A DNA stretch of 64,000 bases from Phoronis australis (Eukaryota > Animalia > Phoronida). The DNA is taken from NCBI GenBank assembly GCA_002633005.1, contig NMRA01000666.1, forward strand, positions 124,001 through 188,000, in the 5' to 3' direction. Below, piece by piece: positions 5,677 through 39,748 of the stretch. Position 1 is the first letter of the stretch; each line of letters opens with the position of its first letter. A program made the translations under genes and the position numbers. Under the pieces are notes generated by a model. It searched no databases, was not told the DNA's origin, and saw only the letters and a program-made list of their open reading frames with translations.

Positions 5677-8600
5677 ATGGAGAGGGTGCTGTTTTGTGTT
5701 CTTGCATTCTGTATAGTGCACATTTCGGCAGATACACCTGCCAATTGTACATACAGTGACACCGTTGGTTCCTGGACTTTTTCTGTGGGCGGGCGCGGAC
5801 ACGACAAATCGCTAAATTGTACTGGTGTCAGTCGACTAGGTAATGTACACTGCCGACTGGCTGCCGACCAAAACATTAAATTTCAATTAAATGTGTGATT
5901 TAATTAAATGCAATGTGTTTTAAAAACATGCAATGTGAGTGAAACAAAAAACGATGACTGGCTATTATCAGCTATAGTAAGAATTACTCTCGCCATAATT
6001 AAATTTTTTCGTACTTTAAAACATGTTAATGTCATAAGTACCGGTGCTAAAACAAGATCATCATACAAATATCTGCCAGAGGTGAAGGAATTCTGTCAAT
6101 ATGATTGCACAACATAAAAAATCTAGATTTGCAGAAGGCCCGTTAGCGTATCACAGATCTAGAGAATGCTACTTGTTGAATATATGTATCGGTTGTCATA
6201 GCCAATGTAGTCACCAGCTCAAACTGATTGGATTCCGTTTTTGTCGATGTCTACAGACTGCAATGCAATGACATTGACACTTGATCAGTGACACAGTGGC
6301 ACTGTGTCACTGATACATATATTCAACAAGTAGCATTCTCTAGATCTGTGATACGCTAACGGGCCTTCTGCAAATCTAGATTTTTTATGTTGTGCAATCA
6401 TATTGACAGAATTCCTTCACCTCTGGCAGATATTTGTATGATGATCTTGTTTTAGCACCGGTACTTATGACATTAACATGTTTTAAAGTACGAAAAAATT
6501 TAATTATGGCGAGAGTAATTCTTAATATAGCTGATAATAGCCAGTCATCGTTTTTTGTTTCACTCACATTGCATGTTTTTAAAACACATTGCATTTAATT
6601 AAATCACACATTTAATTGAAATTTAATGTTTTTTCATGATCTTAACATGTATTTCTTGTTTTTCTTCAGGTGATTGCAGGGATCTGAAAAGTCAAACACA
6701 ATTTTCAGTCACACTTGCAAAATGTTATAAGCAAAACACTAGATTTGCATGTGCTCCTTCTCTTACAGCCTTGGCTGAAAAAGAAAATCATTACTACTGT
6801 TTTGAACTGTGTTTTTTAATGGTTGACATTATATAGAATTTGGTTTTAGAAACCACATATTTGTATCAAATGTCCTGGTGATTGGATTCCTCAACCAAAT
6901 AATATCACGGTCACCAAAGAATAACTGTATTCTCCGTAGCCCTGTCTGAATTCTATTGACTTCTTCCATTAATAAAAGATATTTGACACTGCATATTGGG
7001 AATCTTTAAGCTATCTTTGGCCCACAAAAAATATTAAACCAAGCCCTGGATTTGAATTGATCATAAGCAAAAATGTATTTCGTATTCTCGGCATCCCCTG
7101 TATTCTCTGTAGCCCCCAACTTTGAATTGTACATGGTTTGAAAAAACTTGTATCTAGGTGCATTTACAGAGGAAATGGAGACAAATAAACTCTTCAACAA
7201 AAGAAAAAACACAAATTTTTATTTATGGGTGGAATTTGATGCAAGTTTAGCTAAAAATTACTTTTTCAGTTTAAACTCATTGTTAATAAAACATGAATAT
7301 TCTTTGTTCATTCAGAAGTGTTGGTATTAACAAGTAAATGAATTCTATTGCATTTCTCAAGTGTTCATCCACTCATAAACAGGTATCTCCATATTTTGTA
7401 TTCTCCGTAGCCCCATCCATGACCTCTGTGTTATGTGATATCTATGCATACAATGTTTACCGATGATGAAAAGTTTTTTCCTGTATTTATTTGAATGTAG
7501 TTAATGGAATTAGACATTCCTTTTGACAGTGATGTGACTCTGTGATGATAGTTAAGTGTTGAGTATGTCTAAGAATTAAGTACAATCGCTATGTTTTATT
7601 TGTATACTGTCTCACACCTTGTGAAGCATACACAGGTGTGAACCTACTTTTTATATCGATTTTCAGTGATTAACTACATGAGTTTCCATTAATAAATTTT
7701 CTTGTTCCAAAGTCAGATTTAAGTCTTTTTTCCAAAATGGATGTGACAATACCATTGATGTAGTCTCCGTAGCCCACATTTTTCTTTGTTTTTTCATCAG
7801 GCCAAATCTCCAAAAACTAAATGAGATACTTCACAAAAATTTAACCTGATATTCCATATACCATGTTGATTCCAATAAAAGAAGTCTCCAAGCTGAAATG
7901 AAAAGTTCATAAAATGCCATTTCTGAAACAAAAATGTGCACCCTGAGTAAAATATGTTGTAAGCTAGCTGGTGATAAAACATGGGATTGAAAAAAACATG
8001 CATACTATTTTTTGACATGCTCCTCCCCTTTAAAGGCGATAATGATCAGTGTCACATGGTGAGTTAGTCAGCCCCACTGGATCTATCCACATCCAAGTCG
8101 CACTAGGGGGCGCCGTCGTCAATTGGCACTCTACTCCTTAATGGTCAGATTGGTTTACTTAACAATGACTAGCATGTTTTTGAAATGTTTTCTTGTTAAG
8201 TACTTACATACCGATGAAAAAACATTTCAATCTCTCAAAAGTGTTTCTTGGTGTCAGTTACATTATGGTACGTGCCTGGCCCTGAATTCAGGCAGGTTTG
8301 CAAAATGCAGTGATATGGTACAAAGCTGTGCGGTGGTAATATAAATATATGTGCGAATCGTCTGGACTTTTATGACAGGCATCTTTATGATTGGGGATTA
8401 GCGAACAGAGATAGGGTGTGCAGTCTCAGTGTCAACTGTTCCTGCCGTTAGTATGAAAGGGCCTTAAAAGTTCAATCTCTCATTAGTTGGAGAGTAGTGC
8501 CCCATGTAAAATGCCGTCATGCCATCATGGGTCCACTTTTACAATAGGTGTTAGTGGTTGCCTCAGCATGTGAGCTGAAGCTTGCCTTATGCAATATTTG

Positions 8601-11600
8601 AGGAGGCAGTGTGGCCTAGTATGATAGGTGCTCGCTTTCTTTACTGGAGGTTGTGGTTTCGAGTCTCGCTGGGCCACACTGCTAGACCCTTCATGCAGTC
8701 AGGTTCCTAGCTCCGCTGCTCAGTTTTAACAATATATATATTGATAATGCACAAAAATGCTTCCAGGTGAGCAGTGTAATGGGTCCACATGTGCAGAGCG
8801 CATCTTGTACATCGTGTACCAGACCGCCTGCATTATCAAAGTGGTGGTGCTTACTCTGGAGTTCCGAATAGTAGTAGAGACAGCAATAATAGTATAGACT
8901 GGAAAATTTCACGATTTTTAATAATAGTAGAGACTCTAATAATAGTATAGACCCAACATTTTTGCCACTAGAAAAGTAGAATAATAGTATAGACCGGAAA
9001 TTTGTCGAAAAAAATTAATAATAGTATAGAATGGAATAATGGTATAGACAGCAAATTTGTGGAAATTTAAACATAGTANTGCCTTGATCTCTTTTTGTTG
9101 ATTTAATTATTGTAATCATTTCTTCGTAATTAACCCCAAACTTGTTAAAGACACAACTCCTATCATTGTGTTGACTTGAGCAAACTGCCTGTCTTTCAGT
9201 TCCTACATTAAGCTGTTGGTGTTAAGATAATTAACTAATGAATCAAGACCATCTGACTGAATCTCTAAAATTTGTAAAATTCTGAACCTTTCCTTGATTA
9301 TATATTGCATTGTTTGAAATTTACATATTGATTCATTGTCTTATTGTTGAACTTTTTACTTTCAGAACCTAATGAGAAACTCAAAGTGGAACTCTATTTT
9401 CCTGATGTTGTCTTCGATCAATACGGGAACAAAGGCTGGTGGACTCTTATATACAATCAGGTAATTGGATTTTGTGTCAAATGCTGTAATGTGAAACCTG
9501 AGCAACCTTCTTCACTCATCCCAATATAAGTGCATGGTGCAGCTGATCGCTATACAAGCATATAGCTGACAGAATGTGAATCGGCCCACTGTAAACTGCA
9601 AGACACCGAAAGTAGTTTCTTGACCTAAATCCACAAAAGAAAGGTCTTAGATGTACCTTTTTGACTTAATGAAGATCACTGTCAAGACTATTATGCAAAG
9701 TAAATTAAGTGTTCTGACAGTCAAAAATAATGACCCCACATTATGTTGTTTACACTGTGGCCCTAATGTGTTTTGAATGTCACATGCTGTTAATTATTAT
9801 GAGACTATCCTTTATCATCATTACTCATGCTTGGTTGTTTGGCATTTTGTGAGTATTTATTTCAAAGCGCATCCGAACTCATCCTAGTAGTTTTTGTGTT
9901 TTTGTCATCGCTATATTAAGTTTTCTTAAAAGTAGTCACGTGGTGTTCCCTTTGCCAAAATTGGCGCTCTCACTGCATTGCATTAAATGTTAATTACTCA
10001 TGTCCAAAAGAAATGAATTGCTTTTAAAAAATTTCAGGGATTTGAGGTTGTGATCTCAGGAAGAAAATACTTTGCCTTTTTCAACTGGGCGTCTAAAGGC
10101 GGGTCAGAGGCCATCAGTATCTGCAATGCTACTCGCTCTGGTTGGTCACATGATGTATTTGGGCGGGACTGGGCATGTTTTACTGCCTCAAGGGACATGT
10201 CGCTGATGACAAATCGAAGGGAGAAGATGGTGCAATACCGAAATGGAAACGTGGAAACAGAAAACATCGATCCAAGGTAAATCTATAGACTGAGTTAGAC
10301 TGTTCGATATGAAGCTACATGTATGTCAATAGGCCACTTGGTATATTATGTATTGCAGGGCCAAGAATTTCAACTTAATATTAGTGATTTAGAAGGTAAT
10401 GAACACGAGTGTTTGAAGTAAAAAAGTTGCCAAATATTAGGTTGTAATAGTTTTTGCTGTTGTTAAATGATTGTGTAATATTACAGTATCCTTTCCTGTG
10501 CTAATTATTTTCACTAGAAAAGCATCCAAGGTCTTTTACCGTCACAACCCGGATTTCATCAACAAAATAAATAGTGTTCAGAAGTCATGGAAAGCAGTGA
10601 GGTATCCTGAGTATGAGAACTACACCGTGGAGCAGATGATACGCCGAGCAGGGGGACGCAAGTCCAAGATAAGAGGGTATCGTCAATTCTACTGATTACT
10701 TAAGAGATATGAAGTATTGTCTAAAGTAAAGTGGCTTGAACAAAAGAGGTCACTTTGTTCATACTTTACCATTTAGAAATGCCTTCTGAAATTGTTAACC
10801 CTGATTGTGTAAGGGCTGTTCCAGTAAAATCTGTATGGGAGGGGGGGAAGGCACCTTTTTTTGCACCCACCACGCATATTTTTCATTTATTTCTTCAGCC
10901 TACCACCCGTAATTTTTCATAAGTTTGAAATGCAACCACCCATAATTTTTTTTTGTTCTTGTGGTTGACTGCACAGGTGCTTCAGTTTATCTGTTCCTCC
11001 ATCACCACTAACGTCATTCATTACTAAGAAAACATATGTCTCTTATATATGGTTATTAGCCATCGAGAAATTCAAGCACCTGTGGTTAAATGGTGTTATG
11101 GGCATGCCGATGAGGAGATCGGAGGGAGTGAAAAAGTCGGAGCTTTTTGCAAGTTGCATTTTTGTTTCAGTTTTTGATTCTGTGCCGATTGTTTATAAAA
11201 TTTACTAAAATTACCCACCATCAAACATTTATGGCCCAATGAAACAACAACGACCTGTAAATTTTTATTTTTTTGAAGTACGACCACCACCCATTTTGAA
11301 TTTAAATCAAACGCAACCACCCATAAATTTTTATTTCAGTTGCCTTCCCCCCCTCCCACACAGATTTTGCTGGAACAGCCCTAAGGATACAGTGAGCAGT
11401 CGGTAGCAAAATATTAAATCATGAACACAATAATGTTGATTTTGAAAAGTAACAAATCAATGACTTGTTTATTACTGAAACATGTGCTAAGTCTGGTTTG
11501 ATAGGCCGATGGTGAGAAGCAACTCTCAGTGTGATGGTGTCGAAGTTTATATAATTGTTATGCAGCCACTGTGAATTGCTGTTGGTGAAATTAAAAATTT

Positions 11601-14343
11601 ACATGACTGTGTTTACTAGTGTTTAGCAATTTTTTGATAGCATTCCTAGACCAACTCCAGTGGATGCTGACACCTTGAAGCAAGCACAACAACTGCCAGA
11701 CTCGTGGGATTGGAGGAATGTGAATGGTGTCAACTATGTATCACCCATTCGCAATCAAGGTTTGCATAATTGAACTCAAGCCACGCTTTCCCTGACTCGA
11801 AAACATGTTATATTTTATTGTGGGTTTGTTTAAGACGAATTCTCAAATTTTTTAGTCCTTTACTGTATTCTTATTTATCTTAGCTTGAAATAGTAATTAA
11901 CTGAAATGTACGTGCCTTCAAGCGGTTGATGGTTACGTAATAATTACTTTTTGTTTGTTAAAAATATAATAAATGAATCTTTTAAATGTCCAATCCTGCG
12001 TTTGTCACTTGTTCCTCATCAAGGAGATTGTTCTTCATCTTGGCAGGTCAATTTTTAGCTTTGATTGGATTTTAATTAGAGGATCCTTTCTCAACTGTTT
12101 TCTGAATGTGTTTGTTTTAAGTGTGAGATTTGAGTAGTAACTAACTGAACCACAGAACTCTCTGGAAATAATCTTGAGTTGAATTTTCATAATTAATTGA
12201 CTTAATACTAACTTTTTGTTTCCAGGCGCCTGTGGTAGTTGCTATGCATTTGCCTCCATGGCGATGAACGAGGCCAGAATTCGTGTCATGACCAAAAATA
12301 CTCAACAACCAGTCTTCTCACCACAGGACATTGTAGAGTGCAGTGAATACTCACAAGGTGGGGCTGTAGTCAATGAAAACGTAGGGTGGATTTGATGCCA
12401 TGCAGTGGCCATTTTATATATTTTTGATACTGTCTGCCTATGGAATCAACATAAAAATTGACAGATTAGACTGTTGACATTGACAAGAGCATGACTGAAT
12501 TTGATTTTTGGATGGGTCCAGCTACTGTGGTACCTCTTACTATCATTTTTTTGGATCTGTTACTTAAACCTAAGCCCAATACAGGATCTTTGTGAATTCC
12601 CATTATCTAAACAGATGTACGAATTCTATTTCTGCTCTGCACCCTAGTGGAATGTATCTCTTTGAGTTTCTTGACCCATCTGTATGAAATGTTGCAAATA
12701 GCTTTCTGTTTGGGAGGCGACAATGTCTTCCAGTTTTCAGATAGGTTTGATGTATTACATGTGGTGTATTGGCCATTCTTACTAATAGTTGACACGCCTA
12801 GAAACATTATTTCAATGGCTGTGCATTGCTTTTGTTCCATTTGCTAGTAAGTAGAATAAACAGTCAAGAGTAACCTGGAAAGTGTTAGCAAGAGGGAATG
12901 TATGCAGATTGCTTGATCGCTTACTTGCTGAAATGTTATAGTTGCACTGTGTATTTCACAACATTGTCAGAAGCTTGACATTTTCCTGAATATTTTGAAA
13001 ACTGCATTTTGACCATTGGGGCTTCAATTAAAGATCATTTTCCACACCAGGCTGCGAAGGAGGATTCCCTTACCTGATTGGTGGAAAGTACGCTGAAGAC
13101 TTTGGTCTTGTGGAAGAAAAGTGTAACATGTATAAGGGAAGAGACGGGAAGTGTACAACAGACCCAAAATGTGGCCGCCATTACTCCACATCCTACAGAT
13201 ACATCGGAGGCTTCTACGGAGCGTAAGTATCAAATGGGGAACTCGAAATTCAGCAGGTGGTGCATTCGTACCTTATTGCCTCTATTCAGATGTACTGACA
13301 TGGGACCTTTGGTTACCCTCACAAACCCCTGTGTCCCTCTGCTGATAAAATTGCTTTCTTTTCCCAATCTCTATTGTCTTAAAAGATGGCCTTATCTAGG
13401 CACCACCCAGTGTGAATATCAAATTGCTAACCGTAGGGAGGCTTTTTATTCGTAGATGGTAATTGGCAAGTGACTCTGAATAACATGCAGAGCTCAGTGA
13501 TCCTGCAACTATGGTGATGACCAGCTACTGACTATATTCTATGTATCTCTCACTTCACTCTATGGATGTTACCTGAGCTGTATGTTGGCACTTGTTGTCC
13601 TAAATTGTTGTAAATATGAACCTGATGATGTCTAATGAAAAGACAAAACATTGAATTGAACATGAACTTTTTTATTTGTGCGGTGATCGTCCGGTTTTTA
13701 AAGTGACTTTGGCCGTCATTTTCAATTTCCCACATTTTTGTTAACTTGTGGAGTTATATCGAAGTTTAGTTAAATTGATGCAAGAAATTTTATCATGAGC
13801 AGTTCTGTGATGGCTGTGTATTTACTTCCATAATTCTACTATGAAGCAAAATTTTCCTTGAAAAATATATTTTTGTAAAAAAATATTTCTAAGGCCATAT
13901 TGTGTACTGAATTTCTGAAACTCACCTTTGGATGTATATAACTACTTGAAAGTTGAAACTCTGTATTGCTTTCAGTTCACCCAGTTTTAACGATTCTATC
14001 AACATTTTGCAGGTGTAACGAACATCTTATGAAAATTGCCCTTGTCAAAAATGGTCCCATCGCAGTATCCTTTGAGGTTTACAATGATCTTATGCACTAC
14101 AAAAGCGGCATTTACCACCATATTGAAGGACTACTAGGAGGCCAGTTCAATCCTTTTGAGATCACAAATCACGTTGTCATCATTGTGGGTTATGGATTTG
14201 ACGAAATGTTTGGGCAGCCATTTTGGATTGTTAAGAATAGCTGGGGCTCACAATGGGGTGAAGAGGGGTTCTTTAGGATACGTCGAGGAAATGATGAGTG
14301 CGCGATGGAGAGTATGGCTGTGGAATCATCTCCAATCATTTAA
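5677..14343 (+). CDS. CTSC: Cathepsin C / dipeptidyl peptidase I, isoform using proximal terminal exon 8a (469 aa)
   Basis: Exons 5677-5839, 9366-9460, 10038-10276, 10518-10676, 11641-11759, 12226-12357, 13051-13222 and 14013-14343 are all GT-AG and phase-consistent. The protein has a signal peptide, then exclusion-domain [37 protein letters not shown] (catalytic Cys), [11 protein letters not shown] (His) and KNSWG (Asn). Confidence 0.95.
5870..6632. repeat. Long near-perfect inverted repeat in CTSC intron 1 (321-bp arms)
   Basis: 5870-6190 is the reverse complement of 6312-6632, with one mismatch seen. A 15-bp-arm palindrome is centred at 6299. This explains the mirror ORFs 5908-6117(+) and 6385-6594(-). 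Confidence 0.95.
6925..8033. mobile_element. Probable degenerate non-autonomous DNA transposon fragment with an internal repeated motif and a Kolobok-like CCT|TTAA end
   Basis: The motif TGTATTCTCCGTAGCCC recurs at about 6926, 7099, 7397 and 7759. The region ends ...CCCCT|TTAA at 8025-8033. The left end was not identified. Confidence 0.35.
8603..8680 (+). mobile_element. tRNA-derived SINE head (degenerate)
   Basis: A-box-like TGGCCTAGT (8612) and B-box-like GGTTTCGAGTC (8655) at tRNA spacing. No complete cloverleaf. Confidence 0.5.
8866..9052. repeat. Cluster of about 7 AATAATAGTATAGAC-like motifs (subterminal-repeat-like)
   Basis: aata(a)tagta(t/g)agac is repeated with variable spacers, next to a single N at 9079. 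Confidence 0.6.
10813..11381. mobile_element. PIF/Harbinger (Tourist-like) MITE, copy 1, in CTSC intron 4
   Basis: About 40-bp TIRs (GGGCTGTTCCAGTAAAATCTGT.../...ACAGATTTTGCTGGAACAGCCC) with a TAA target-site duplication on both sides. Confidence 0.85.
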
Positions 14344-15139
14344 GTGATGTTGATATGATTACATGGGGAAGCTCTTCCTGCAAACAAATTTTGTTGTCTT
14401 TTTGCCATTTGTAACACTCACACTCAAACTACATGCATGGCGTCGTGATTAAATTAGTCTATGACCTTTTGAAAGTTTCGTCTCCTTACTGCTACAGTTA
14501 CAAAGCTTCGGAAAACACCTGGTGTGCAATCACACTTGCGTCTACGGAACTCATCTTGGGGGGTCTCTTTCGTCATATTAAAGTGACCTGAGATTGAGGT
14601 CAGAAGTTTGATCTTGTGCTTCTACTTCACAGTTATACTGACTAAAGGTGTACCCACGTAATTATAAACAGATCAGTCAAGGAATAAGCAAATTATCTCA
14701 GTATCTAGCAGTTATTGATATATTATTCTTTGAGATATTGTACGCTAAAAGTGAGGTCTAGTTATTTTTTCGGATATGCCCAGTCCGGTAGTTGTGTGGA
14801 GCTTAACTATAGACCAAATTTCTGACTCACAGTCTTTTAAAGATGCATTTCATGAAACAGGCTTCAGTAATTACAAGAAATGTCGGGTGTTTATATCTCA
14901 TCCCTTGTCATAATTATGACACTCTGTGTATATTTGGGAAGCTGGGTGTTCAGCCTCAGTTCAGTGAACTCAGGAATGAGGTGGATGAACCATTACCATG
15001 TCTAGTCAAACCAGAAGAAAAAAATGGTCCCAGGGTGGTTGCATCTGTGGTTACTTTGGATCATGTGTTGGTTTGTACTTGTTTCATAATCTGGCAGCTA
15101 GGATACTTACCGGTATAAAAATTACATTGAAAGTGGTCA

Positions 15140-15345
15140 GAGAACTAGAAAAATCGAGGAGTCTGTTCGCTAATGTCATGAATAGAGGCGAGGGAGTTTA
15201 CAAACTTCCAAGGTTTTGGAATAGCCTGATCACTCCTAGTGGTCACCAGCTTCTGAAGATGGATGCTGTAAGGAGCTGAAACGCTAGAAGCAACTGCGTT
15301 AACTGCATGGCTGTGTCTGAAAAAATTGTCAAGTGTGTGCAATTA
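15140..15345 (+). mobile_element. Penelope-like retroelement 3' remnant (GIY-YIG C-terminus plus degenerate hammerhead-like motif)
   Basis: The peptide NVMNRGEGVYKLPRFWNSLI resembles the MNRDEG-Y-L---W tail of PLE endonucleases. It is followed by CTGAAGA...GAAACGCTA at 15253-15286. Confidence 0.6.
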
Positions 15346-15523
15346 CGCTCTTATGAACTTATTCAGTGTTATGTTGCTAAGGGAACAGTTCTTGGATTAC
15401 TGCCATTACAAAATTATTCTCGAGAGTGCCCATAGCCCATTTGAATCAGTTCTACAACTGTTGTGCTTGTGCTGTTCGTGCTGCACTAGAAATTTCCATC
15501 ATTCCAGTCTGATGGCATTAACT

Positions 15524-15592
15524 TTATCATTATTGTTATTATTTTTTATTATTATTATTGCTGTTATTATCATCATTATCATTATTATTGTT
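15524..15592. repeat. (ATT/ATC)n microsatellite
   Basis: Imperfect trinucleotide run. Confidence 0.7.
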
Positions 15593-16401
15593 GCTATAAG
15601 ACCTGCAACTTAAGGGTGTGGCTACTATTAAGCTGTTTTACGAAACTTTAGGGTCACTAATGACCGACCCACTTTTGATTATTAATACTGATCTAGCTCT
15701 CTGGCAACAGATCTGGGATTAGATAATATGGCATCAATGCACAGCAGCGAAGTTTTGTGAAATACGTCAATAAAACTGTCAAGTCAGAATTTTAGTCCAA
15801 GTGGCACCAAGTTGGACAGTTCGAATGTTATACTTTGTGTACTCGATCCTTCTGTTGAGTCATATTTCACCTTACTTGAATACAATCTCATTACAGTTGG
15901 ATCCGACTTAAGCAAGTTCACTGTCTAGTCAGACTGCTTGGAACCTTTCACTTCAGTCTGCAATTTATGTCACGTTACGTCCACAGATTTCATAACTTTT
16001 AAAATGTTCTGAATTTTTAAGACTTCTTGTAATCCACGTTTCAAATGTTAACTCTGAATGGTCCAATGAAACCAGTCAGTATCTGTATAACGTGCTTTGT
16101 TTTCAGAGCTGCAAAACAAGAGGTGACTGCTAGCATTACTGTTGTTAGTGACATCGCTGATTGCTCTTTTATTGTCTTGCCACACGATAGATGTGGACAA
16201 GAATGGTACAATTAGTTTTTAATGGGTTCATCATTAATGGAGCCAGAACTTTACAGGGAATTAATTGCGAAATCCTTGGGGTATCCTGTATATTAGGCGT
16301 GATTTGTGACTTCAAAATGGATTATCCATCCGTCCTCACCTGTCCCCCATGTTCGTCATCATGGAATTTTGAGCGTAATAGGTTGTACTTCTAATACATA
16401 G

Positions 16402-16729
16402 GTGTAACGAAGCTCTCATGAAACAGTCACTGGTGAAAAGTGGTCCGTTGGGTGTTGCGTTCATGGTCTACAGCGACTTCATGCACTATAGAGGCGGAGT
16501 CTATCATCACGTGGATGAACTAGAGGACCATTTTAACCCCTTTGAAATTACAAATCACGCTGTATTGCTAGTGGGTTACGGCACAGATAAGGACAGTGGA
16601 GAAGACTATTGGCTCGTGAAGAACAGCTGGGGGACATCTTGGGGTGAAGGCGGCTACTTCCGCATTGCCCGCGGACACGACGAATGTGCCATTGAAAGTA
16701 TTGCCGTAGAATCATTCCCTATCTTGTAA
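16402..16729 (+). CDS. CTSC: Second, intact copy of the cathepsin C terminal exon (8b); alternative last exon giving a 468-aa isoform
   Basis: An atag|G acceptor in the same phase as exon 8a is followed by an open frame [20 protein letters not shown]...[19 protein letters not shown]...KNSWG...[21 protein letters not shown] occurs at 17033-17038. Confidence 0.88.
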
Positions 16730-18636
16730 TCCACTAACTTTTTACTTTTTGCTTTACTTTGTGAGTTTTCATTTTTTTAGTGAATAACATTTTCTCTCTA
16801 CGTTTGGCTCAATCCCCTCAACTTCTCAGTGATTTCGTAATATTAGAGATGATTCCTCCAAGTTATGTTCAAAATGGAACTTGCTCATGTCCGACCAAAC
16901 CAGAGTAGGAGATTGTATTCTAGTAAGGCGAAATCCTAGAGCTTTTTTCGATGTCACACTCCTGCCAGCTTTAGTCAGATTATTTACTGCGTCATGCGCC
17001 TGGATTGTATCAATGTTCATACTCGTACACTTAATAAACAGAATGTGTTTTTAACTTTGTAAAATAAATTATGTGTTCATATTGTAGGATGTAATTATTC
17101 AACATACATAACGAAACGACTCTTCAAAACGAAGGCCTTGTGGATTAGTTAATCTGCACTGAAAATTCCCAAAATCTTCATGTTCCAAAATTTTACTATT
17201 AGAAAATAACCCTGTGTATGATAGGTTAAGCATTTCTTGCTATATCCTCAAAAACAAGGTCAATGTCACCAAATTTGACTGGAGATTCCAACAAAATCTG
17301 AAAGTTTGAAAACTTTCAAGCGTGGCCTACACTTTAACAAATTACACAGCAACTGTGGCAAAAGACGACCCACCAAGAACCATAATGTTCCAATTTTGTC
17401 AAATGGGGAGGTATGGTTGAAACCAGCAAAACGGTTTAGTAATCCTTTTAAGAAAAAATATTAACGACATTTATCTTAAGTTTGTTTTCTTTATTTACAA
17501 ATACAATTTTCACATTTTCATCAGCAATTAAGAGACCTTTGAGGTTAAAATAACAGGCTGCAAACTAATCTCAGTCCAAATAGAATACAAAACATCCCCG
17601 ACAACAAATGACAAAAACAGCAAAACTAGTAATTGAACATAGAACCAAGCAACCTGTTGAAGAACAGTGGACACGGTGATAGTCCCTGAACTGAACAACT
17701 AATCGACTGCATCGTCAAAGTTGATGCCCAGCATTTCAAATTGATGCTGAAGAAAAAGTGGCCATTTTATCAACAGCTGCACACACCACCAGTGTAGCCA
17801 TCTCTATCAAACCTGGCCCACAGTTGGAACACTAACAAAACCGCCAGCACTGACTCTCATTGGATGTCAACATTACCACTGAACATAACGTGTTGAATCT
17901 GGGAGGAAATGGTACACAATCTCACTCTTTCAGTCCAGATTTTTGGATGTAAGTGTCTCCAGTGTGCCCAAATAAAGCTCTATTGGACGAAGCTGCGTCT
18001 ATTTGTATGCTCCTGGTATGTAGGTCTAAGACCAGTTTTTGTCGCATTTCAAGACAATTTCTTGTGATTGAATTTCTATTCTTGGGAAGTTCACTCCAAT
18101 ATTGAAAGGGGTTGATACACAATAGGAAACTTAACCAAGCACAGGTACAGCACTGACAGGGTATCCTACTACATATCAACATCTAAACTTAACACAGCTG
18201 AAAGAAAATCCAGACCCGTTTGATACTATATTAAATTTAAATCTAAACGGCAACCAAACATAGGATTAGTTTAGCAAAAATATTTCTTTTTGTTCATCAC
18301 TTTAGGACTTGGTGCTCCTAAACAACCTGCTAGTAACCCAATCTATTGTTCAGCCACCACACACAGTGTTTGGCTTTCCAGAAAGATGCGCATATTGGTT
18401 CCGACACACAAAATGTAATCCTGTCAATCCCAAAGTCAGTACTGAATTTAGCCCTTGGCCATAACACTTTTCATCATTCCTTGCAATCACAGAAATCATG
18501 CCTGCACTGAGTAACGAGCATTCTGAGACTGAATCGTAACAAGTGGGTAGTGTAATGTAAAAGTACATTTCGGACATCAAAAATTGCAGCAGATCTCTGG
18601 TTGTGAAGATAAAAACCGATGATGCAGTTCGCTTTC

Positions 18637-21600
18637 TCACTGTACTTCTCCCATCAGATCCAGTCGTCTGAATTTGTCCAGGTTGTAGAAACCACCTTTA
18701 ACTGTCCTCCCACCAAAATACCTCCCATGCAGATCGATGACAGCTAGAGGAAAAAAACAACAGTGATGGTGGTGAGGTGTATAGTTCATGGAAACTGGAG
18801 CAAACCATGGCTATGATGGCGTACACAAAACATAACTGAAATATGACAACAATCACCAGGTCACAAACTGGAAGAATGATAAACAACTTCACACGGGCAT
18901 AATATTCGTTACAAATTCTAAATTGACAAGTGGAGTCTCAGGCCTCTGAAGACACCCTGAGAACGAGGTCTACTTTCTGTACTTAAAACTATCCTCGAAA
19001 ATCGATTAACTGCCTGGCACACTTCATTGAGTAAACTTACAAATTTGGTGAAATTTTGAGTCTGAGTAAAGTCTGAGTTCAGATATTAGATCCTAGACAA
19101 TGGTGCCCACTTGTCAGACTGAAAATAAAATTATGATGGGAGGCAAAAATAGTTGTAAGACAACTGAAAACGAACCTTTTATGGCTGCATCTATTTTTTC
19201 AAACTCCACAAATATCCTCACAGCTTCATCATCGACTTCTTCGGGCATCTGAAAGCAGGAAATTGTTAATTAGACTATTGTGTTACAAAGCTTTCAAAAA
19301 AATTCACATTTCAAAAATTGTGAAAAACCAGACAACAGTTTAATATTCTAATAACAAATCCGTCAAGAGTTAGCCCAAATCTTTTGCTCCAAGTGTATAT
19401 TCCTTTTTTAATATTAGGAAGTCTGGCATTTTCAAACCTCTGTCATAGTCGGAAACAACTGTCCAGAGGAGACAGTGTGTCTCAGTGGATTGAACTCTGG
19501 TCTCCTATTTGTGAGTGAGACCTGAGTTCGTATCCTGGCGTCACTAGCAATCGAGCATTGCACAAAGGTGTGTCCTACTTCTCTGAGCTCGGTCTTACTA
19601 GTGAGTGTATGCAAGGCAGTGAATAAGAACCTGGATATAATGCAAAAGCAATTTCTGGGGCTGTGCTCTCATAAAAAACTGTCCAGCTGCACAGACATGT
19701 ATCACATTACACAACCTCAAACTCATTTTCACATTCATTGTATAATAATAATCAAAAACAAACTGTTACGTTTGCTTAAATACCACTATAAAACCAAAAG
19801 CCTGCTGGATCAATACTTTTTGATGCATAAAATCACCTGTGCTCTATTCAAATATTTTCACTGTGCATCTTCAGTGCACTTCATTGGTTGCTAAAGCAGC
19901 TAGTTTCTGAATGAAAAAACCATGTGGCTCAATTCATGCATATCGTGTACGGGGAATGATATTACGTTGTGTACTAATACAGATCTCTGATTATCTTACA
20001 GACATATTTTCCAGACAATTGCTTTTCTTCTGGCTTGAATTTAACATCAATAGAAGGTGATGTAACGACCCAGCAAATAACCTAGATATTGGTGTAACTG
20101 CATACACTTCCACTGAGCAAACACATTGTGCTACAGGCAATTGGACACAGTCTGTGCAGGTCATTTGTGGAAGTGAATGCAGGCCTTTCGCTGGGCTGTT
20201 TACGCCACGTTTGTTAACTTTGTTCTTTGTAAGTTGAAATTCTTATTTGAGAGACTCCAGATGGGCTTGTAGTGTCCCCTTTTGGACATTCTGAGTCCAA
20301 TATCTCTGAATGCAGGAGAAGTTAATAATTTTGGTGTGTTGTGATGCTGAAATACTTTAACTTTTAAGTACCATCTTGTAGTTAACAATCTGAATACCAT
20401 AGCTTCTATCTGATGCATTGTAGTAATTCTAACTAGTTTACGTTTTTCTACATTCTTTCATGGAGGTGTTTTTAGCTTATTACATATGTTGCTTGCTTGT
20501 ACACTTGAAATACATGGTTACATTTGCTGTCTACACTAAGTACACATTACGAGAACAGCCATTAACAGTGAAAAATATCTGTTCAATAGAACCAAGGATG
20601 ATTATTTTTACTAATTAAAGATACAAACAAAAACTAACTTCTTTACCCTTTAAAGACAGAATAACCAACCATGGTTTGCAATGAACTATTCAGCAGGTTT
20701 TTTCATGACAATACTACTTATGTCCTACTTAAATAGCCTAGTAAATAAACCAGAAACCATCTATTCACAGCCAATCTTATATTAGAACTAGGCTACTGCG
20801 TCCTTCAGAACAGTCTGATGTTATCAGACCTGACCTAAGCCTGCTAATTTGACTGTATGGATGCGCAAAAAAGAGTGACCATTGAGCGAACGGATAAAAA
20901 ACCTCAGCGAAAATCAGTCAACCAATGAGAGACATACCTCAAATATGACACACTTGATGACCTTTCCATACTTGCCGCACTCCTCCGCAGTTTCCGGCTC
21001 CAGTTCCTCATCTACCTCTCCCGGGCCGACCATATTCTGTAAAACAATAAGTTACTCAAATCCGCGTTAATGGGCCATGCAGAAGCAAGTAGAGCGTAGA
21101 GAAACTTCGCAAGTTGACTAATAAAATCACTCTGTTCAAAGTCAACCAGACTTCGGGGCAAAAATTATTGCCTCATCTTGAAGTAATGAAGTGTTGTTTT
21201 TTATACAGTTTCCTGATAGGTTCACGAAAGTTTGAAAGAGCCAAATGAATTTCTACAAAATTTGTCAACTTTTTTGTATTAAATTGTTAAATTGTTCACA
21301 CAGCCACAATAAAGGTCGTCAATCCTTAACATTGAGCAAATGACAAGATACAACTAGAAGGCTAACTCCACCAGTGCTGGTGTTCACAATATACCTACGC
21401 TGCCTCGGCCAAACAGAAATGTGCAGCAATTTGCACAGGTCAAACATGAAACACACATCATTCAAAGGAATATCCTTCAAGGAAACAAATCTTTAGCAAT
21501 TAGCACCGAGAAAGACTTCATAATGGCTCACCCGTAATAGTATAACTTTACTGGGATTCCTGAGTAGATCCGCTGTGCTGCCCAATTCAGCTCGCGGCAA

Positions 21601-24600
21601 GTCTGAAATGTAGTGCAAAAACAAACACAGCTTAAATGCAGTGCAAAAAATACAGATGAAATGTAGTGCAAAAAATAGAGCTGAAATGTAGTGTAAAAAC
21701 AATACAGCTGAAATGTAGTGCAAAAACAATACAGCCGTAATGTAGTGCAAACAGCTGAAATGTAGTGCAAAAACAATACAGCTGAAATGTAGTACAAAAA
21801 CAATACAGCTGAAATGTAGTGCAAAAACAATACAGCTGCTGAAATGTAGTGCAAAAACAATACAGCTGCTACCAACTTATCAAAAATACACAAATCTTCT
21901 GATTTAGATCACTTTCTGTACAAATTATTTTCAGCTTTACTGAGATCTGAAGATTTCTGGGATTAGGAAGAAGTTTAATTTTCCTTGGCACACAAAATGA
22001 CATGTCGGGTCACGCCAATTTCTTGAACCTATTTTCCTTCAACAACGGGCCATCAATTTTTCTTATCCCTGGCTTCACGTCCACTCTGAGAAAGAAACTA
22101 CATTATGAGAGATTAGTTCTAAAACGGAGCAACAGGTGGGGTTCATAGCAACTTTAAAATGTCTCTTTCTCGTTTCACAACAGACGACACATGTTAAAGT
22201 TCCATTCATTCTGGGCTTCTGTTGAAGGAAAACACATTTACACACCTATATGTATTTCTTCTATTACAAGAAACCAAATATCATTCTACCAAAGCCCACA
22301 CAAGACAGGAGAACCTTCTCCAGTACGATAATCTCTCTTACCCCCAAAACACACACACTAGTTTCATTTCCCACAACCAACACTAACTACTCTTCACGAG
22401 TTCCTTCTCTTAGATCTTCCCTTGAGTAAAGTCGTTAACACTGAAAATCCCCAACACATTTTATCTTTGTCAATACTCCTCTGATGGATCTTCTCTCTTA
22501 CCACTCACCCCCCCCCCACACACACACACAAACAACCTCCACTGCCCCACCATGATGACTCACTCTCACCCTTGGGGAGGTCCTTCTCGTGGATGATCTT
22601 GCCACCCCTCTTGCTCGTCTTTTCCACCATCAGGGCCTGACTCATCCCCTGCTCTGACTTGCCCAGACCCTGTCCCTCCTTGTAACCCATCTTGGCCATC
22701 AACTTGGCTGCAACAGATCCCCTGCAAAAACAAGCAATGCGTCACAGTACATGTACGCATACATTGTATTTTCACTTTCCAGGAATTTTCCAAGAAATGC
22801 ATTGAGCCTTTGTACGTCCTAAGTCATGTTTTTCATTTGTACCATGTAGGGAAAGTGTTTTGCGTCAGATATTAAGCTTATTGTGTTCTGTGTTACTCAA
22901 CGAACACATACACTTGAAGAAAATGGTCTCCCTGAACAATTGTTAGACACTGACTAATCGTGCAACATGAGTGAACGAATCATAGATGACACCAGGGCTC
23001 CGTTTCTAAATTTAAATCTCAAGTTTGATTGTTGCCATGACATTAACAGCATTTTTCAACCTCCGCAATGTGACAGACAGCAATGTTACTTTGGTCAAAG
23101 TTAGAACTAAAGATTTTGCAAAACAGAGCCCTCATACGGTGCGTGTATATACGCTAGGAAGATGGTTTCCAGAAAACACAAGTTTTAAACTAAAATCAAA
23201 TTAGTTGTAAAATAGTTTCTGCGAAGTGAAATTCTCAAGGGAAGCCTTGCTTTGGAATTTAATCCGTGAATATGAATCTGATACCCAGGACTGGAGTTTG
23301 GTCACAAGGTATGGAGTATTTTCAATGAGTGTAGGGAGTTGAGGAGTGCAGGTGTGAAAACACAGGTTTGGTGTCTGCTAGTGAGTTAATATCACAAAAC
23401 ACTGGATATTCTTGTTTCACAGCTCTGGGCAAAGATTACAACTTCAAGAAGCCCATCTCATCAAACAAGAGATCCAAAATATATTTTTAAGTCCTAAAAC
23501 CAAGTGTTCCTTTAAATGAAGAACATTTAATGTCCACTCATAACTTCAGTCTACGAGCAAAATTGGCATGGCAACCTTTCAGCTCATGTAAGTTTCAACC
23601 TTGCTCTGCAATAAACAGACTCACCCTAACCCCATCTTCAGGCCAATTGAGGTTTTCCCCTCCCCCATCTCTTTTTGCACCTCCTCTTTGATCTTCTCAT
23701 CCTGCTGTATAAGGGCGGTGGGCGGAGCGATGGCAGCACCACCTGTCAGTAACAGAGAGATGAACAGATCATTAGCATTTTGCACATTCCGCCCTTCACA
23801 CATTGGAAGAAACACAGATGTTGATATGCACCTACCCTGTCTGGTAGACCATAAGCAATAAAAAAACCATGGAGCTTATTAATTACAAGTGTGGGCTGTC
23901 CCAGTAAAATCCGTATGGGAGAGGGGGAAGGCAATTGAAATAAAAATTTATGGGTGGTTGTGTTTGATTTAAATTCAAAATGGCTGGTGGTCGTACTTCA
24001 AAAAAATAAAAATTTACAGGTCGTTGTTGTTTCATTGTGCCATAAATGTTTGATAGTGGGTAATTTCAGTAAGTTTTATAAACAATCCGACAAAATCAAC
24101 AACTAAAATAAAAATGTAACTTTCAAAAAGCTCCACTTTTTCACTCCCTCCGATCTCTCCATCGACATGCCCATAACACCAGTCAAACACAGGTGCTTGA
24201 ATTTCCTGGCTAATAACCATATATATTAGTAATGAATGACTTCAGTGGTGATCGAGGGACAGATAAACTCAAGCGCANAAAAACATGACTTGCAAAAAGC
24301 TCCACTTTTTCACTCCCTCCGATCTCTCCATCGGCATGCCCATAACACCAGTCAAACACAGGTGCTCGAATTTCCTGGCTAATAACCATATATATTAGTA
24401 ATGAATGACCTCAGTGGTGATCGAGGGACAGATAAACTCAAGCGCCTGTGCAGTCAACCACAAGAACAACAAAAAATACGGGTGGTTGCATTTCAAACTT
24501 ATAAAAAATTACAGGTGGCGAGCTAAAGAAATAAATGAAAAATATGGGTGGTGGGTGCAAAAAAAGTGCATTCCCCTCCCTCCCACACAGATTTTACTGG

Positions 24601-27600
24601 AACAGCCCTAACAGAATAAGATGCACAAAGGGAAGAAGAAAAGAAAATTCACTGATGATGTAAAAGTTATCTCGAGACCAGCATTGAACTAAAATCTTGA
24701 ATGCCAAATTTGAGCACCAGGGGGTGCTACAGTTATTAGAATTCTTTGACCGGTAAAAATTTGAAGGTATCTTATATTTATTAACTAAGAACAGCATATC
24801 AGAACGTTTAGCTTCATGTTCGATTAATTGTGTAGCAACAAAAACACAGCCTTAAACCAGCTCAATACCACCACCTCGACCAATCGCCACGCAGCCATAC
24901 CTCGTCGTTTCCTGTCTCTATCATCTTCATCATCACTGTCTGGCCGTCGTCGTCGGTTGTCGTCATCATCATAACCCATCTCACGGTGCCGCTCTTTCCT
25001 GCGCCTAAACACGAACATTACTATTTTACAGAAGAAGCCAGCTGGATACATTACCCGGTATTACTCATTTCCCTAATCAACAGGTGAATGCAATACATAT
25101 CAGGACCCTCTCAACATCCCTATTTGACCACTTTCATCATTATCCAGTTGTTATATTGTGCGGCTGCACATTATCAGACCGTTTCCAAACATTATCCTGG
25201 ATCCGTGCCTGCCTGGTGAACACCTAGTTACCATAGATTCACAAATAACTCAAATTACACTACAAGCGTGGTGATTCTTTACTTATTGAGCACACGACAT
25301 GGCGGACTAGCGAAATTCCATTTTGTCAAATTTCTACACAAAAATAAAGAGAAATTCAGTACATTACCAGCATGGTTCGTATTGTGCAGATGCCACAACA
25401 CAACATTTGATGAAGTATTGCAGCGAAGTAATTGGCCTTTGTTAAACAGACAATGGCAATTTTGGCACGATAATATGGTTGTTGAAAGTGAACACGACCA
25501 ATCTTTGCATTTCAAAAAATAAAAAATTCACAACAAAAATACAAATACATACGAGGCACTGAATTATGAAATTTTCTAATTGACATAATTCATTCTGTGT
25601 TCTAAATTAGTGAAAACAAAGATAACAGTAGATGAACAAGAACGCACTTCTCTCGCTCCTCCAACTCTTTCTCACGGTCCAGCGCCTTCTGTCGTTTCTC
25701 TTCCTCCCGTTTACGTTTGACCACTTCCTCATAGTCGTTTGGATACAGTGGATTGTACTCGTTAGTTATGCCAGCAAATGCTGGAACAGGGTCAGAGCCA
25801 ACAAACGGCGTGGTGGAGAACGACGAGGGTGTCACAGGAGCTGCTGCTACAGCTGCTGTTGCCGCTACTGATGCTGGCAAACCTATCTTCTCCATCTGAA
25901 GAATTTTCAAAAAAAAAAATTAAACTCACCAAATTTTGATCAAAAAATGTTGGCTTGTTTTAAAATGGATAAATCTTTTTGCCACGGTTTTAATCACAGC
26001 TTTGATCTTTCAGACAATGGATAGCTGACATGTCAACCAAGCTATTGGTTCAGCAGGAAATATAAACACTACGACTAAGTTTAGTCCCACAAACATTCAC
26101 TGCTGAGGAAAACAGAAAGGTGGCTTTTCAATAAGTTAAGAAAACGTAGAGTTCACATCAACGATTTATTTAGAACAAAACATTCCAATGTGAAATAAAT
26201 TCACCCTCAAAATATTTTAATAAGCAATGATGTATTTCTGCATTTCGAGTGGCAATACAGACATGTACCAAGAAATTGCCAAAAAAACAAATATAAGTGT
26301 TGCATGAGCTTTCCTTGCTAATCAACTTGGGAGTGCCTGACATTTTGAAAAGTAGGCCCATGGTCCAATGCATTTTTCTACCTCCATCACACAGGAGAGT
26401 TCAATCCACATCTCTCATCTAATGGCATGTATGAGAGAAAGAGCCCAGAATAACTGATGCAACCACTTACACCTGCAATGATTTATTCCTGAGCTTTTAC
26501 ATCCAACATTGATTTCCAGTGAACCATCAATTAACAAAAAGACGAATTTATAAAAAAATTCAACATAGTTTTGTTTAATAGTTAAAAAGGCAGTGAATAC
26601 GTATTCCTCACTAATTTCCATTGAGTAGCAACAAGCAATACCTTTCCAGTTAGCTGATTGAACCTATACTCTCCTTCCACCGATTTCCCTTTCAGGTCTA
26701 CAACCGGCGCCATCGACTGGGGTCGCCGACGTGGTGGCAACGTTGGGCGCTTGTTTTGCAGCTGAGGCTGTAGTAACTTTAGGCCTGGTGACCATCCAGC
26801 TTAAAACAGATGGAATAGACTGGCACTAAAATTCCTCGGTAGAAAAGCTACACTTTACATAAATCATGGTGCTCACATGGATCGTACTTCCATGAGTTTA
26901 AAATTATTTCCATGCTCTATTTACGTGTTTTTTTTCAAACATAACGTAAATTGTCTTCTGGTAACTTAGGCATATTTAGTAAAGGAACTCGCGACACGAC
27001 TTTCAATATTTCATTTCCAGTTTCCATGGCCACTTGACTTTTAATTTGTCATTTTCCAAATCTTCCGTGTGAGAATCACAAAAATGTCATACATCAATCA
27101 GGCACTCTTTCTGCTTTTTGTAATTAAATCAATTTGTCATTTCAAAGCTAGCAACTATCTGCTATCTTAAAGTAGCCCACTTTTCAGATAAAAGATTTTT
27201 AGAAGGTTGTACAAACAAATGCTTGTGTTTGAATGTGACAGCTGGTTATTTCGTATGCCAAAAGTAAACCCGGCAATACAGTGGTGTCATTAATGTAGAC
27301 CTTTTGTTTCCACACAACATGCAAATATGCTATTCAAAGTAGCCAAGATTACAAAAACTTATGATGTGATTGCGAAATGGAATGAATCTTGTGAATTAGA
27401 GCAATGCAAGACGTTTTGATATGTCCACTGCATGCAACACAAATAACAAAAAAATTTCAAATATTTCCACCTCCAAGAGTGAGTGTCAAGTGAACATAAA
27501 AACTGAGTTAACACCAGTCATGTCAAAAAACTTGAGAAAAATGAGGCCAATATTAAAAACTGCCACTAGGAGGCATAGCAGAAGACAAATCAACATTGGC

Positions 27601-36851: not shown

Positions 36852-39748
36852 TTTCGGACCGACCCGAATACGGCTGTGCCCATAGTAGCAATTTTATTTT
36901 TTTACGTTTGCCTCTGTATCTTCAAAGATCCTCAAACGATTTTCATGAAATTTGGCACATAGGCATCTATTAATGAGGTGACGCTATCCGTCCGTTTTCG
37001 GATCGATTCGGGGTATTCTGTGCCATCTAGTGTCCATTTTTAGTATTTTTGAGACCGTTTTTAGGCGTCCGCCTCTATGTCAACCAAACCACTCAAAGGA
37101 TGATTGCAAAAATGGGCATGTATCTTCTTACTTTGAAGACGACGGTTGGCGTTGATTTTACGACTTCGACTACTGTGGCTCCTCCTGGTGGCAGTTTTGT
37201 TTGTTTTTGCGCCCATGGCTGTATCTCCTAAACGCTCTACAGGATCTTTATTAAATGCAACAAATGTGTTATATGAAGTTGACAACGGACGACGACAACT
37301 TTCGGACAGCTCGGGATACAGGTTTGTTCCACAGTGGCAATTTTAGTTTTCTTACGGTTACCTCTGTATCTTCAAAGGTCCTCGATGGATTTCCATAAAA
37401 TTTGACACTATAGGCATCTATTAATGAGGTGACGCTATCCTTCCGTTTTCGGATGGATTCGAGGTATTTTGCGCCACCTAGTGGCCATTTTTACTGTTTT
37501 CGATTCTGTTTTTTTTTTTTTGGCGTCCGTCCCTCCATCAACCAATCCACTCTAAGAATGATTGTAAAAATTGGCATGTATGTTCTTACCATAAAGAGGA
37601 CAATTGACGAAGTTATTCCGATGACTCCGACTATTATGGCGCCTTCTAGTGGCAGTTTTGCGCCCAGACGTACCTGTATCTCCTAAGCCTCTGCAGAATC
37701 TTTATTAAATTTAGCACGTGTATTTATATGAAGATAACAAGGGAAGACGACGACTTTCAGATGGGTCCGACTAACACTTCTCCGTAGTGACAATTTCATT
37801 TTATCTGTTTTCTTCTGTTTCTCTGAAGTTCCTCGACGAATTTTCATGAAATTTGTTAAATAGCTTTCTTTTAAAGAAACGGTGACATTTTTCGGTTTTC
37901 AGACGGATTCGACGTATTTTGCTCCATCTAGTGGCCATTTTTACTGCTTTCTAGCCTGTTTTTGGCGTCCACCCTCTATCAACCAAACCACTCTTTGGAT
38001 GATTGTGAAAATTGGCTTATGTATTGTTAATGTGAAGAGGGCGGTTGACGATGATTTTCTGTCTTCAATTACTGTGGCGCCTCCTAGTGGCATTTTTAGT
38101 CCTTATCTGTATCTCGTAAGCCGTCTGCAGAATGTATATTAAATTTAGCAAGTGTATTTATATGACGTTGACAACGGAAGACGACAACTTTCAGACGGAT
38201 CCGATGAATGCTTTGTCCCCCAGTGACAATTTTATTCTTTCCGTTTTGCTAAAGTTTCTTAACGGATTTTCATGAAATGTAGTAAATAGCTTTCTGTTAA
38301 AAAACGGTGACATTTTCCAGTTTTTTGATGGATTCGAAGTATTTTGCACTATCTAGTGGCCATTTTTATGACACAAATAAACACCTTAGAAGCACACCGT
38401 TTGCAGAGCATTCGTGGGCGCATTTCAACGCTCCGCGTTGCACTTGTTACCTTTTTACCCACTTACCCCCCTGCATGATTTGCTGCACGTTCAGAAACTT
38501 TTTTAAAAGTTGAAATCTTAGTTTGCCTCCCTCTCCCTCGCCCGTCCCTAGGTGAACGTATGATTTGCTGCCACTCAGAAACTTTTTTGAAAAGTTAAAA
38601 CTTAGTTGTCATCTACCTCTTAAAAAGTGGTCCGTGGCGTTATCTTTTCTACATTAATTCACGTTAAATCTGGACGTCATTAAACATAAAAATCTAAACG
38701 GGATTTTCAACGTTTGAGTCATTTTTCCACTCACAGGGTTGATTTTTCAAAGTCGAGCAGTGCTGTGTTCTAGACTTTCGTACTCATGTGTTCACGTGCT
38801 TTCCAACAAGAAGGCACAAATCTATCGGCCGATCCTATGGTCTGAAAGAGCCTCATGAGAACGCTTGTCAGAGGTCCCATTAACTTTCGTCCAAATCATA
38901 CCCCGCCTATCTCACGGTTATCTGGTTGTAAGCCAACATGCGGAATGATGAACTGAGCAAACATCGATTTCCGGTATCGCCGACTCATGCGCGCACCCAG
39001 CCTAAAATAGACGGCCGGGGCTCGAATCCTTCGGTATACGGACCTTTCACTGAAAAAATTACCGAGGACTAAAAAAACGAGGCTACTAGGGTACAGGTCT
39101 GCCAATCGTGCATCCGCGACGAATTCCTGTGGACTTTTTGGACTTTTGTCTCGTTTACTCGGACTTTTTATTTCACTGAGGCGGAGCTTTTTGCCCAATT
39201 CATCAAATTGGGGGCTCATTCGATTCCCTCCCCCCCTTGGGTGCGCCCATGCGTCTTTGAAAACTACCCTTTCTCTCAGTCACTCTTCATTTCACTGCGT
39301 CTTTGCACTATATAAGTTCCGGTACTGAATTATTAAACAATCCAAAAAATCGAAGAGCAAATAGACTAAGTCTTAGTCTCGAAAGGCTAATTGGTTTGTT
39401 TAAACCGTTGTGGTTCTAGGTGCGGCGCGGCACGCTCCGGTCAATTTGTTTAGGGTTGAACGTTGTCTGTTATGGTCACACAGCGCCAGCATTGTTCAGA
39501 GACAAAGGCTTGTAAATATGTTCGCCATACCTGAATGGGACTTCTGTTAGGGAGGGCTGTAAAACGCATAATGGAACTGAACAACAGCTGAGAGCAGGCG
39601 GCATTTGTTTAGCGAGGCGGTCAGAACGTCTCTGACATTCCGAGGCAATATTTCCTGCAGCTCTTCCGTCTGCAGTGAGGTGAGTGAATGAGAACATATT
39701 ATGTCGTACATCGGGTGGATGACCCACTGAGTCCCAGCCATTCATAAG

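Follow-up and report, generated by a model that had tools for sequence, protein, structure and literature searches.

Two alternative last exons joined to one cathepsin C gene of Phoronis australis differ at predicted S2-pocket residues

Does one protease gene of the phoronid Phoronis australis make two enzymes by exchanging its last exon? The question is raised by a 64,000-nucleotide stretch of assembly GCA_002633005.1 (contig NMRA01000666.1, positions 124,001 to 188,000, forward strand), called the window below and numbered from its first letter. It contains a single gene for cathepsin C (CTSC, or DPP-I), located on the plus strand. According to tblastn with three full-length CTSC queries over the 64 kb, one set of exons 1–7 is followed by exactly two last exons, 8a (coding part 14013..14343, 109 aa) and 8b (coding part 16402..16729, 108 aa). 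Our answer, which we hold as likely when taken as a whole, is that exon 7 is joined to either of these old exons, giving two predicted-active enzymes whose S2 pockets are likely to be of unequal depth. The joining itself is shown by RNA, and that 8a and 8b form a real functional isoform pair is a part of this answer in which we have high confidence.

Both last exons are intact. Each is preceded by AG, continues exon 7 in phase 2 (a GT donor follows 13222), and has no internal stop. In the numbering of human DPP-I, which is used throughout, both align to the human (3PDF) and rat (1JQP) enzymes from Cys331, which opens both exons, to the C-terminal end, and both keep the TNH and KNSWG motifs with His381 and Asn403. 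Together with the shared exons, either form has Gln228, Cys234, Phe278, Tyr323, Cys331, His381, Asn403, and Trp405; the roles of Phe278, Tyr323, and Cys331 are treated in PMC8836896, where the first two belong to the chloride site. Among the shared exons, exon 1 (5677..5839; signal peptide and Asp1 of the exclusion domain) is placed by tblastn, lies outside read coverage, and has two donor candidates, 5824 and 5839, either of which leaves the frame open. Exon 2 (9366..9460) is supported by tblastn and an RNA joint at its donor, while RNA joints define exons 3 (10038..10276), 4 (10518..10676), 5 (11641..11759; heavy-chain start and, together with exon 6, the Gln228 motif), 6 (12226..12357; catalytic Cys234), and 7 (13051..13222; Phe278, Pro279, and Tyr323), the last of which has the single donor feeding 8a and 8b. 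Exons 1–3 match CTSC homologues by tblastn over the exclusion domain, which starts with Asp1 (DTPANC); a homologue search with exon 3 as query gave no match. The shared part groups with mainly molluscan lophotrochozoan proteins (18 rows, SH-aLRT 98, with a looser grouping in another tree), where SH-aLRT is the Shimodaira–Hasegawa-like approximate likelihood ratio test. The flanks of 8a and 8b have no blastn match to each other. A preliminary description of this DNA had claimed two intact last exons in the correct phase with both catalytic motifs, unrelated flanks, and no other duplicated CTSC exon, all of which was verified.

RNA evidence comes from about 18–19% of each of three raw-read runs of one study (X6, X7, and X8) and from an older contig run, X5. 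The two joints that the preliminary description had proposed to look for are present in all three raw-read runs, both on the sense strand: 13222->14013 (8a) with 5, 7, and 6 reads and 13222->16402 (8b) with 28, 30, and 46 reads in X6, X7, and X8, respectively. Exon 8a thus accounts for 18 of the 122 junction reads (0.148, confidence interval 0.09–0.22) and is the minor form, with 104 reads belonging to 8b. At ten listed sites in exons 3, 4, 5, and 7, the other allele is fixed in run X8 or falls short of this by a single read at most, yet both joints occur in this run; therefore, one upstream exon set feeds 8a and 8b.

RNA depth is 1–18x in every bin of 14016–16375 versus 0–0.5x in neighbouring introns, and no RNA joint, including one from 8a to 8b, is found anywhere in 13780–17300. 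Between 8a and about 17,025 there is neither a depth drop nor a cluster of ends at 5–15x depth, a level at which a minor proximal end is still possible. Depth falls to near zero only past about 17,080, beside the AATAAA signals at 17033 and 17063 (17033..17068, plus strand). From the continuous stranded depth and the lack of joints it follows that the 8a mRNA has an unspliced 3' untranslated region (UTR) of about 2.7 kb (14344..17060, plus strand, end approximate) containing 8b, and that the choice is between two acceptors. Both mRNAs appear to end at one shared poly(A) site near 17,050. The separate 3' ends, or polyadenylation choice, suggested earlier found no support, as RNA of the 8a form continues without splicing across 8b and reaches the same end; given the uninterrupted depth past 8a, a separate poly(A) site for this exon was rejected, save perhaps a minor one. 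As a separate observation, at 13193 and 13217 in the heterozygous runs X6 and X7 the consensus of 8a-joining reads (4–5 reads) has the window alleles and that of 8b-joining reads the other alleles; allele-biased exon choice at these sites is possible.

The same data decide whether the pair could be an assembly artefact, or two genes or haplotypes merged into one sequence. Such an explanation is left some room by the search for CTSC copies, which covered the 64-kb window alone, and by run X1, which may be the assembly's own sample. One DNA contig of X1, however, covers both last exons at flat depth, and in three other samples the spacer is tiled by RNA and the same exon 7, whichever allele it carries, is connected to each of the two last exons, which refutes this explanation and leaves it with practically no probability. 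The earlier proposal of alternative last exons from one gene is thus borne out by both RNA joints and by the single contig over both exons.

How old are the two exons, and is 8a still under selection? The copies are identical at 68 of 109 aligned residues (62%, in agreement with the 60–65% once counted by hand) and at 65% of DNA positions. Third codon positions are 38% identical and fourfold sites agree at 8 of 27; the proportion of synonymous differences (pS) is 0.81, which is beyond correction with silent sites saturated, and nonsynonymous divergence (dN) is 0.27. The longest identical run equals 10 nt, i.e., there is no conversion tract. Among the 40 of 88 variants listed, those that fall in the coding parts of the two exons comprise three synonymous substitutions and a 3-nt deletion at 14130 that keeps the frame. 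Open frames and catalytic residues kept despite saturated silent sites support the suggestion, already made from the sequence, that 8a and 8b are old copies retained under purifying selection. This retention also answers the rival explanation that 8a is a decaying duplicate reached through leaky splicing, with the complementary RNA elements described below being neutral inverted copies. Such decay would fit the minor use of 8a, its departures at two conserved columns, and the closeness of one of these elements to an inverted copy of 8b. It is at odds with the open frame and full set of catalytic residues, with polymorphisms that keep the frame, and with equivalent exons kept across Mytilus and Branchiostoma species. 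Decay is thus largely refuted for the exon and, as a whole, very improbable.

The exchange of the last exon also changes residues of the predicted S2 pocket. At positions 349/382/429, exon 8a has Ser/Val/Met and 8b has Ala/Ala/Ile. Ser19, Val54, and Met101 of 8a align to Ala173, Ala200, and Glu245 of cathepsin B, which are listed as S2 residues (PMC9712828). According to the same source, papain positions 133, 160, and 205 belong to S2, positions 133 and 160 form its floor and set its depth in other cathepsins, and Gly versus Ala at 133 sets the pocket depth of cathepsin S. For human DPP-I, S2 is reported to be long and narrow with a preference for small aliphatic P2 residues (PMC3962583), and a docking study names Ala349, Ala382, and Ile429 among active-site contacts (PMC8908036). 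The cathepsin B alignment and PMC9712828, on which our assignment is based, support the mapping to positions 133, 160, and 205 that had been made by hand, and both residue triplets were verified. Ser/Val, however, is no oddity of 8a: Ser349/Val382 (SV below, with AA for Ala349/Ala382) is a common invertebrate state, found in 47 of 218 representatives, among which Val382 never occurs together with Ala349. The Ile/Met difference at 429 is private to the window pair and was dropped from the recurrent signature, which consists of positions 133 and 160 (349 and 382). By analogy with other cathepsins, we infer that Ser349/Val382 gives a shallower, more polar S2 pocket than Ala349/Ala382, and it is moderately likely that the 8a and 8b enzymes would differ in P2 preference. 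Mixed tetramers of the two forms, as suggested in the preliminary description, may possibly occur.

Is the split confined to phoronids? The homologue set comprises 334 proteins from two homologue searches and cluster look-ups for 30 proteins, of which 302 were aligned with both window forms; the master alignment leaves out six rows (two non-CTSC proteins, two fused Mytilus models, one chimeric, and one truncated). A pair filter that takes no account of residue type (0.9–0.93 or more identity upstream, C-terminus below 0.85–0.88) yields isoform-like pairs with an identical N-terminal part and swapped C-termini 72–80% identical in Mytilus (4 species), Branchiostoma (3 species and 2 hybrids), Acanthaster, and Biomphalaria. 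Each of the five lineages, counting the window, has an Ala349/Ala382 form and a Ser349/Val382 form. In the first four pairs, A349S and A382V are the sole changes common to all, and Biomphalaria has both too. Neither this recurrence nor the RNA pairings predicted below appear in the preliminary description. Among cross-species invertebrate pairs of matched divergence the AA-versus-SV split occurs in 31 of 260 and 77 of 541, frequencies that serve as a guide and not as a p-value, the pairs being non-independent. Adjacency of the alternative exons outside the window is implied only by the fused Mytilus models.

Three further results of the pair search were set aside: P0011/P0333 (AA/AA), which passed the filter but differ throughout and were excluded as an exon pair, a truncated scallop model returned by the filter, and P0021/P0328 (SV/AA, 90% identical throughout), which was taken only as a whole-gene or species difference. 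Whole-gene duplicates with the AA/SV split are found in four heterodont clams, in a tandem pair at locus L006, and in a coral-like pair. None of 79 loci from a metagenome scan has a duplicated last exon; L006, the only one with two His-motif matches, was rejected as an exon pair, since it has two complete intronless cathepsin C genes in tandem, at 6945–8318 (SV) and then 8647–9936 (AA), that are sisters in the tree (SH-aLRT 94). Separately, the hagfish DPP1-like protein P0067 has the SV state and sits on a long branch, in contrast to those named proteins of jawed vertebrates that were checked.

The recurrence of the split is the evidence on which a second rival has to be weighed, namely that the isoforms are real but catalytically equivalent, with 8a kept for dosage or regulation (UTR, stability, or localisation) and SV/AA acting as a compensating toggle. 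Both states do occur as the sole listed form in many invertebrates (SV 27, SA 13, AA 6, and GA 3 of 49), position 382 changes at least 9 times on the 49-row tree, and 8a is minor with a constant share in three runs. Toggling, however, would often leave the two copies alike, while five of five exon pairs are split versus the 12–14% expected from matched pairs. We consider equivalence unlikely and a difference in S2 the better account of the retained pair.

Did the pairs arise once or several times? Trees were built from 45–63 chosen rows of 304 and about 105 columns, which contain little signal. Once positions 349 and 382 are masked, each copy has the other as its sister in Mytilus (support 96/94) and Acanthaster (96/91), and the copies group in pulmonates (100/98, with two other snails) and weakly in Branchiostoma (83/76). 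A single clade of SV alternative exons is rejected by the approximately unbiased test (p-AU 0.03, Biomphalaria left out). Exon order is SV then AA in the window and AA then SV in the fused Mytilus models; the alternative region of Acanthaster covers the last 141 residues and so begins within what corresponds to exon 7; and an intron at the CNE site is absent in urchin genomic open reading frames and present in mussel and oyster. Lineage-wise grouping with the sites masked, together with differing order and unit, points to repeated origin; several separate duplications with parallel changes fit best and are fairly likely, as against a single old pair subject to conversion.

The opposite account assumes one early-bilaterian last-exon duplication, gene conversion within lineages except at selected S2 residues, and vertebrates that kept AA. 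It would explain why the same two residues differ in five of five lineages, and it agrees with the grouping of amphioxus AA with jawed vertebrates (99/89), which was obtained with trait columns included and is lost once they are removed. In Acanthaster and Branchiostoma the alternative region has 5' parts that are nearly identical, which also fits it, as do the LLGG loop common to window 8a and Biomphalaria SV and the rare Gly347 in the AA copies of both. It is opposed by the reversed order in the fused Mytilus models, by the longer unit in Acanthaster and the distribution of the CNE-site intron, by the lack of a conversion tract in the window, and by whole-gene duplicates that independently show the same split. 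We regard this account as rather unlikely. Under repeated duplication, the copies would have arisen several times and been retained for their differing S2 pockets.

What selects between the two acceptors? An inverted-repeat search of 13200–17100 gave 18 pairs, and two predicted pairings involve the surroundings of 8b (all parts on the plus strand). Element D (16297..16317) is a putative site of the docking kind that can base-pair with the codons for FEITNH in either last exon, with targets inside 8a (14154..14173) and inside 8b (16541..16560); in the latter case, the hairpin loop would enclose the 8b acceptor. A predicted long duplex brackets 8b, with its 5' arm at 15864..15919 and its 3' arm in the shared 3' UTR at 16877..16934. 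D is complementary to each exon at 19 of 20 positions, and at 20 of 20 with allele 16310T, which is read in all three RNA runs; at the three positions that differ between the targets, D carries the only base able to pair with either. Its joint pairing score is 40, whereas shuffled sequences average 26 and reach 33 at most (0 of 400 shuffles), and the outer duplex scores 48 versus a shuffled maximum of 41 (0 of 400) at about −56 kcal/mol, two small X8 insertions near it being outside the scored sequences; 48 intron–exon controls score 36 or less. Alleles 16310T and 15869G raise the pairing scores, and 16897C lowers the duplex energy. In a looser energy test, the spacer is matched by 4 of 100 shuffles versus 8a and 3 of 100 versus 8b, where the best 8b site is other than D. 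Pairing of intron 7 is not above shuffles, and Rfam has no match in 13200–17600.

Folding gives the D:8b pairing a value of 0.88–0.94 locally and, with both targets present, a 0.79:0.19 split favouring 8a, which is near the 85:15 usage if pairing represses its partner, though 2.7-kb folds are rough. According to the proposed mechanism, D would pair first with 8a, which is transcribed earlier, masking it and favouring 8b; pairing of D with 8b instead would loop out the 8b acceptor, so that 8a is used, and the outer duplex would help. We give an even chance to RNA pairing steering the choice, a claim that comes from modelling.

Several observations count against the two-enzyme reading or its parts. 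As for expression, the 8a share shows no difference among runs X6–X8 (p 0.62), all from one study, run X5 shows the 8b joint only, and the 2.7-kb UTR may limit translation of the 8a form. At near-invariant columns (n = 44), 8a departs at two (F356L and L384I) and 8b at none. The pocket effect of Ser/Val versus Ala/Ala is argued by analogy; a difference at 382 alone is frequent between species (80 of 260 and 341 of 541), and both Homarus paralogs are SV. Pairs outside the window are known from proteins alone, the Biomphalaria pair from two annotations, and tree placement of the window pair is weak, with sisterhood (p 0.39) and grouping of 8a with Mytilus SV (p 0.18) both unrejected. Regarding the pairings, all folds give the 8b acceptor the same predicted openness of 0.42, D scored on 8a or 8b alone is reached by 3 of 400 and 13 of 400 shuffles, respectively, a single transition separates D carrying 16310T from an exact inverted copy of 8b, so that a neutral inverted copy is the rival, and the comparison of variants, which favours pairing, covers alleles within one species.

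Other features of the window include, at the start of CTSC intron 1 and 30 bp past the second donor candidate, a 763-bp near-perfect palindrome (5870–6632, 92.8% self-complementary), a candidate foldback element or assembly feature. A repeat with inverted ends in intron 4 (10801–11384) has a second copy at 23893–24620 and very high RNA depth on both strands; it is likely a common family resembling miniature inverted-repeat transposable elements (MITE). A convergent neighbour gene with a G-patch domain occupies the minus strand at 17333–25919, and its RNA starts about 250 bp beyond the CTSC end; its translated pieces look like SPF45/RBM17. Farther along are a tandem array at 36852–38368 with units of about 450 bp that are 70–75% identical, a single-exon rhodopsin-family G-protein-coupled receptor at 44202–45653 (plus strand), an N gap at 55312–55915, and a B-box/NHL protein at 56922–58499 (minus strand).

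What might the two forms be for? Following the analogy above, the Ser/Val floor would favour small P2 residues (Gly, Ala, or Ser) and Ala/Ala would keep the vertebrate-like pocket, so that two pockets may let the lysosomal aminodipeptidase stall on fewer substrates. A wider proposal can be made only tentatively, with less than even confidence: that animals need a deep-pocket AA and a shallow-pocket SV cathepsin C, reached repeatedly by last-exon duplication (at least five lineages in at least three phyla) or by whole-gene duplication, that jawed vertebrates have AA only, and that exon choice in the window is made by an RNA docking site on the His-motif codons. This would be splicing that exchanges half a protease active site, not a tail, and molluscs, an echinoderm, and amphioxus would show repeated parallel evolution of a gene structure together with one and the same pair of residues. 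It would also be a docking-type RNA element outside arthropods and vertebrates with coding-sequence partners. What sets the P2 specificity of DPP-I, a drug target, could be addressed with such natural pairs, matched except for their final 110 residues.

How does the arrangement compare with known systems? No description of alternative CTSC last exons was found in the full-text literature (most subscription journals being outside its coverage), in line with the preliminary description, to which the arrangement was new. The main text of a survey of DPP-I evolution (PMC8836896) reports lineage-specific paralogs only, with no occurrence of splic, isoform, or exon, and PMC12032550, in the portion available, has no treatment of alternative CTSC last exons. 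The closest likeness is to the 'isoform X1/X2' DPP1 models of RefSeq/GenBank in Mytilus, Branchiostoma, Acanthaster, and Biomphalaria, which share the identical N-terminal part, swapped C-terminus, and AA/SV split; they differ in being automatic annotations whose unit and order vary by lineage, and no paper on them was found. Compared with cathepsin C of the papain family C1 as known from 3PDF and 1JQP, both window forms have the exclusion domain and catalytic residues, but the window gene has two alternative exons for residues 331 to the end.

In Drosophila, competing RNA pairings are described at the 3' variable regions of PGRP-LC, CG42235, and pip (PMC6191721), and docking/selector splicing in srp and Dscam (PMC4691838). 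With these systems (see also PMC9013439) the window shares tandem 3' cassettes and, by prediction, one element for which two partners compete. There, however, selectors lie upstream of target exons, pairing activates, and mutations have tested it (PMC6191721, PMC4691838), whereas the predicted CTSC partners are coding codons in both exons, the element would sit in the stretch separating them, the two forms appear to have a common 3' end, and the effect of pairing would be repression.

As for gene structure, C-terminal tandem duplicated exon substitutions form a recognised class with convergent origins, in which 77 of 236 human events are C-terminal (PMC9741552, PMC8373072). The main texts of these two papers, supplements being outside, make no mention of CTSC or cathepsin; ligand-binding residues are scarcer in the swapped regions surveyed, and swapped regions at the C-terminus are frequently exposed tails (PMC9741552). 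CTSC resembles this class in its old homologous alternative 3' exons, probably convergent in several lineages, and in the window two homologous tandem exons of one gene follow the same upstream exon, with one per coding sequence. It differs in that two of the three catalytic residues lie in the swapped CTSC unit, as does the S2 floor. The CTSC pair is a case of tandem duplicated terminal exons, real, expressed, and recurrent, whose exchange replaces half of an active site.

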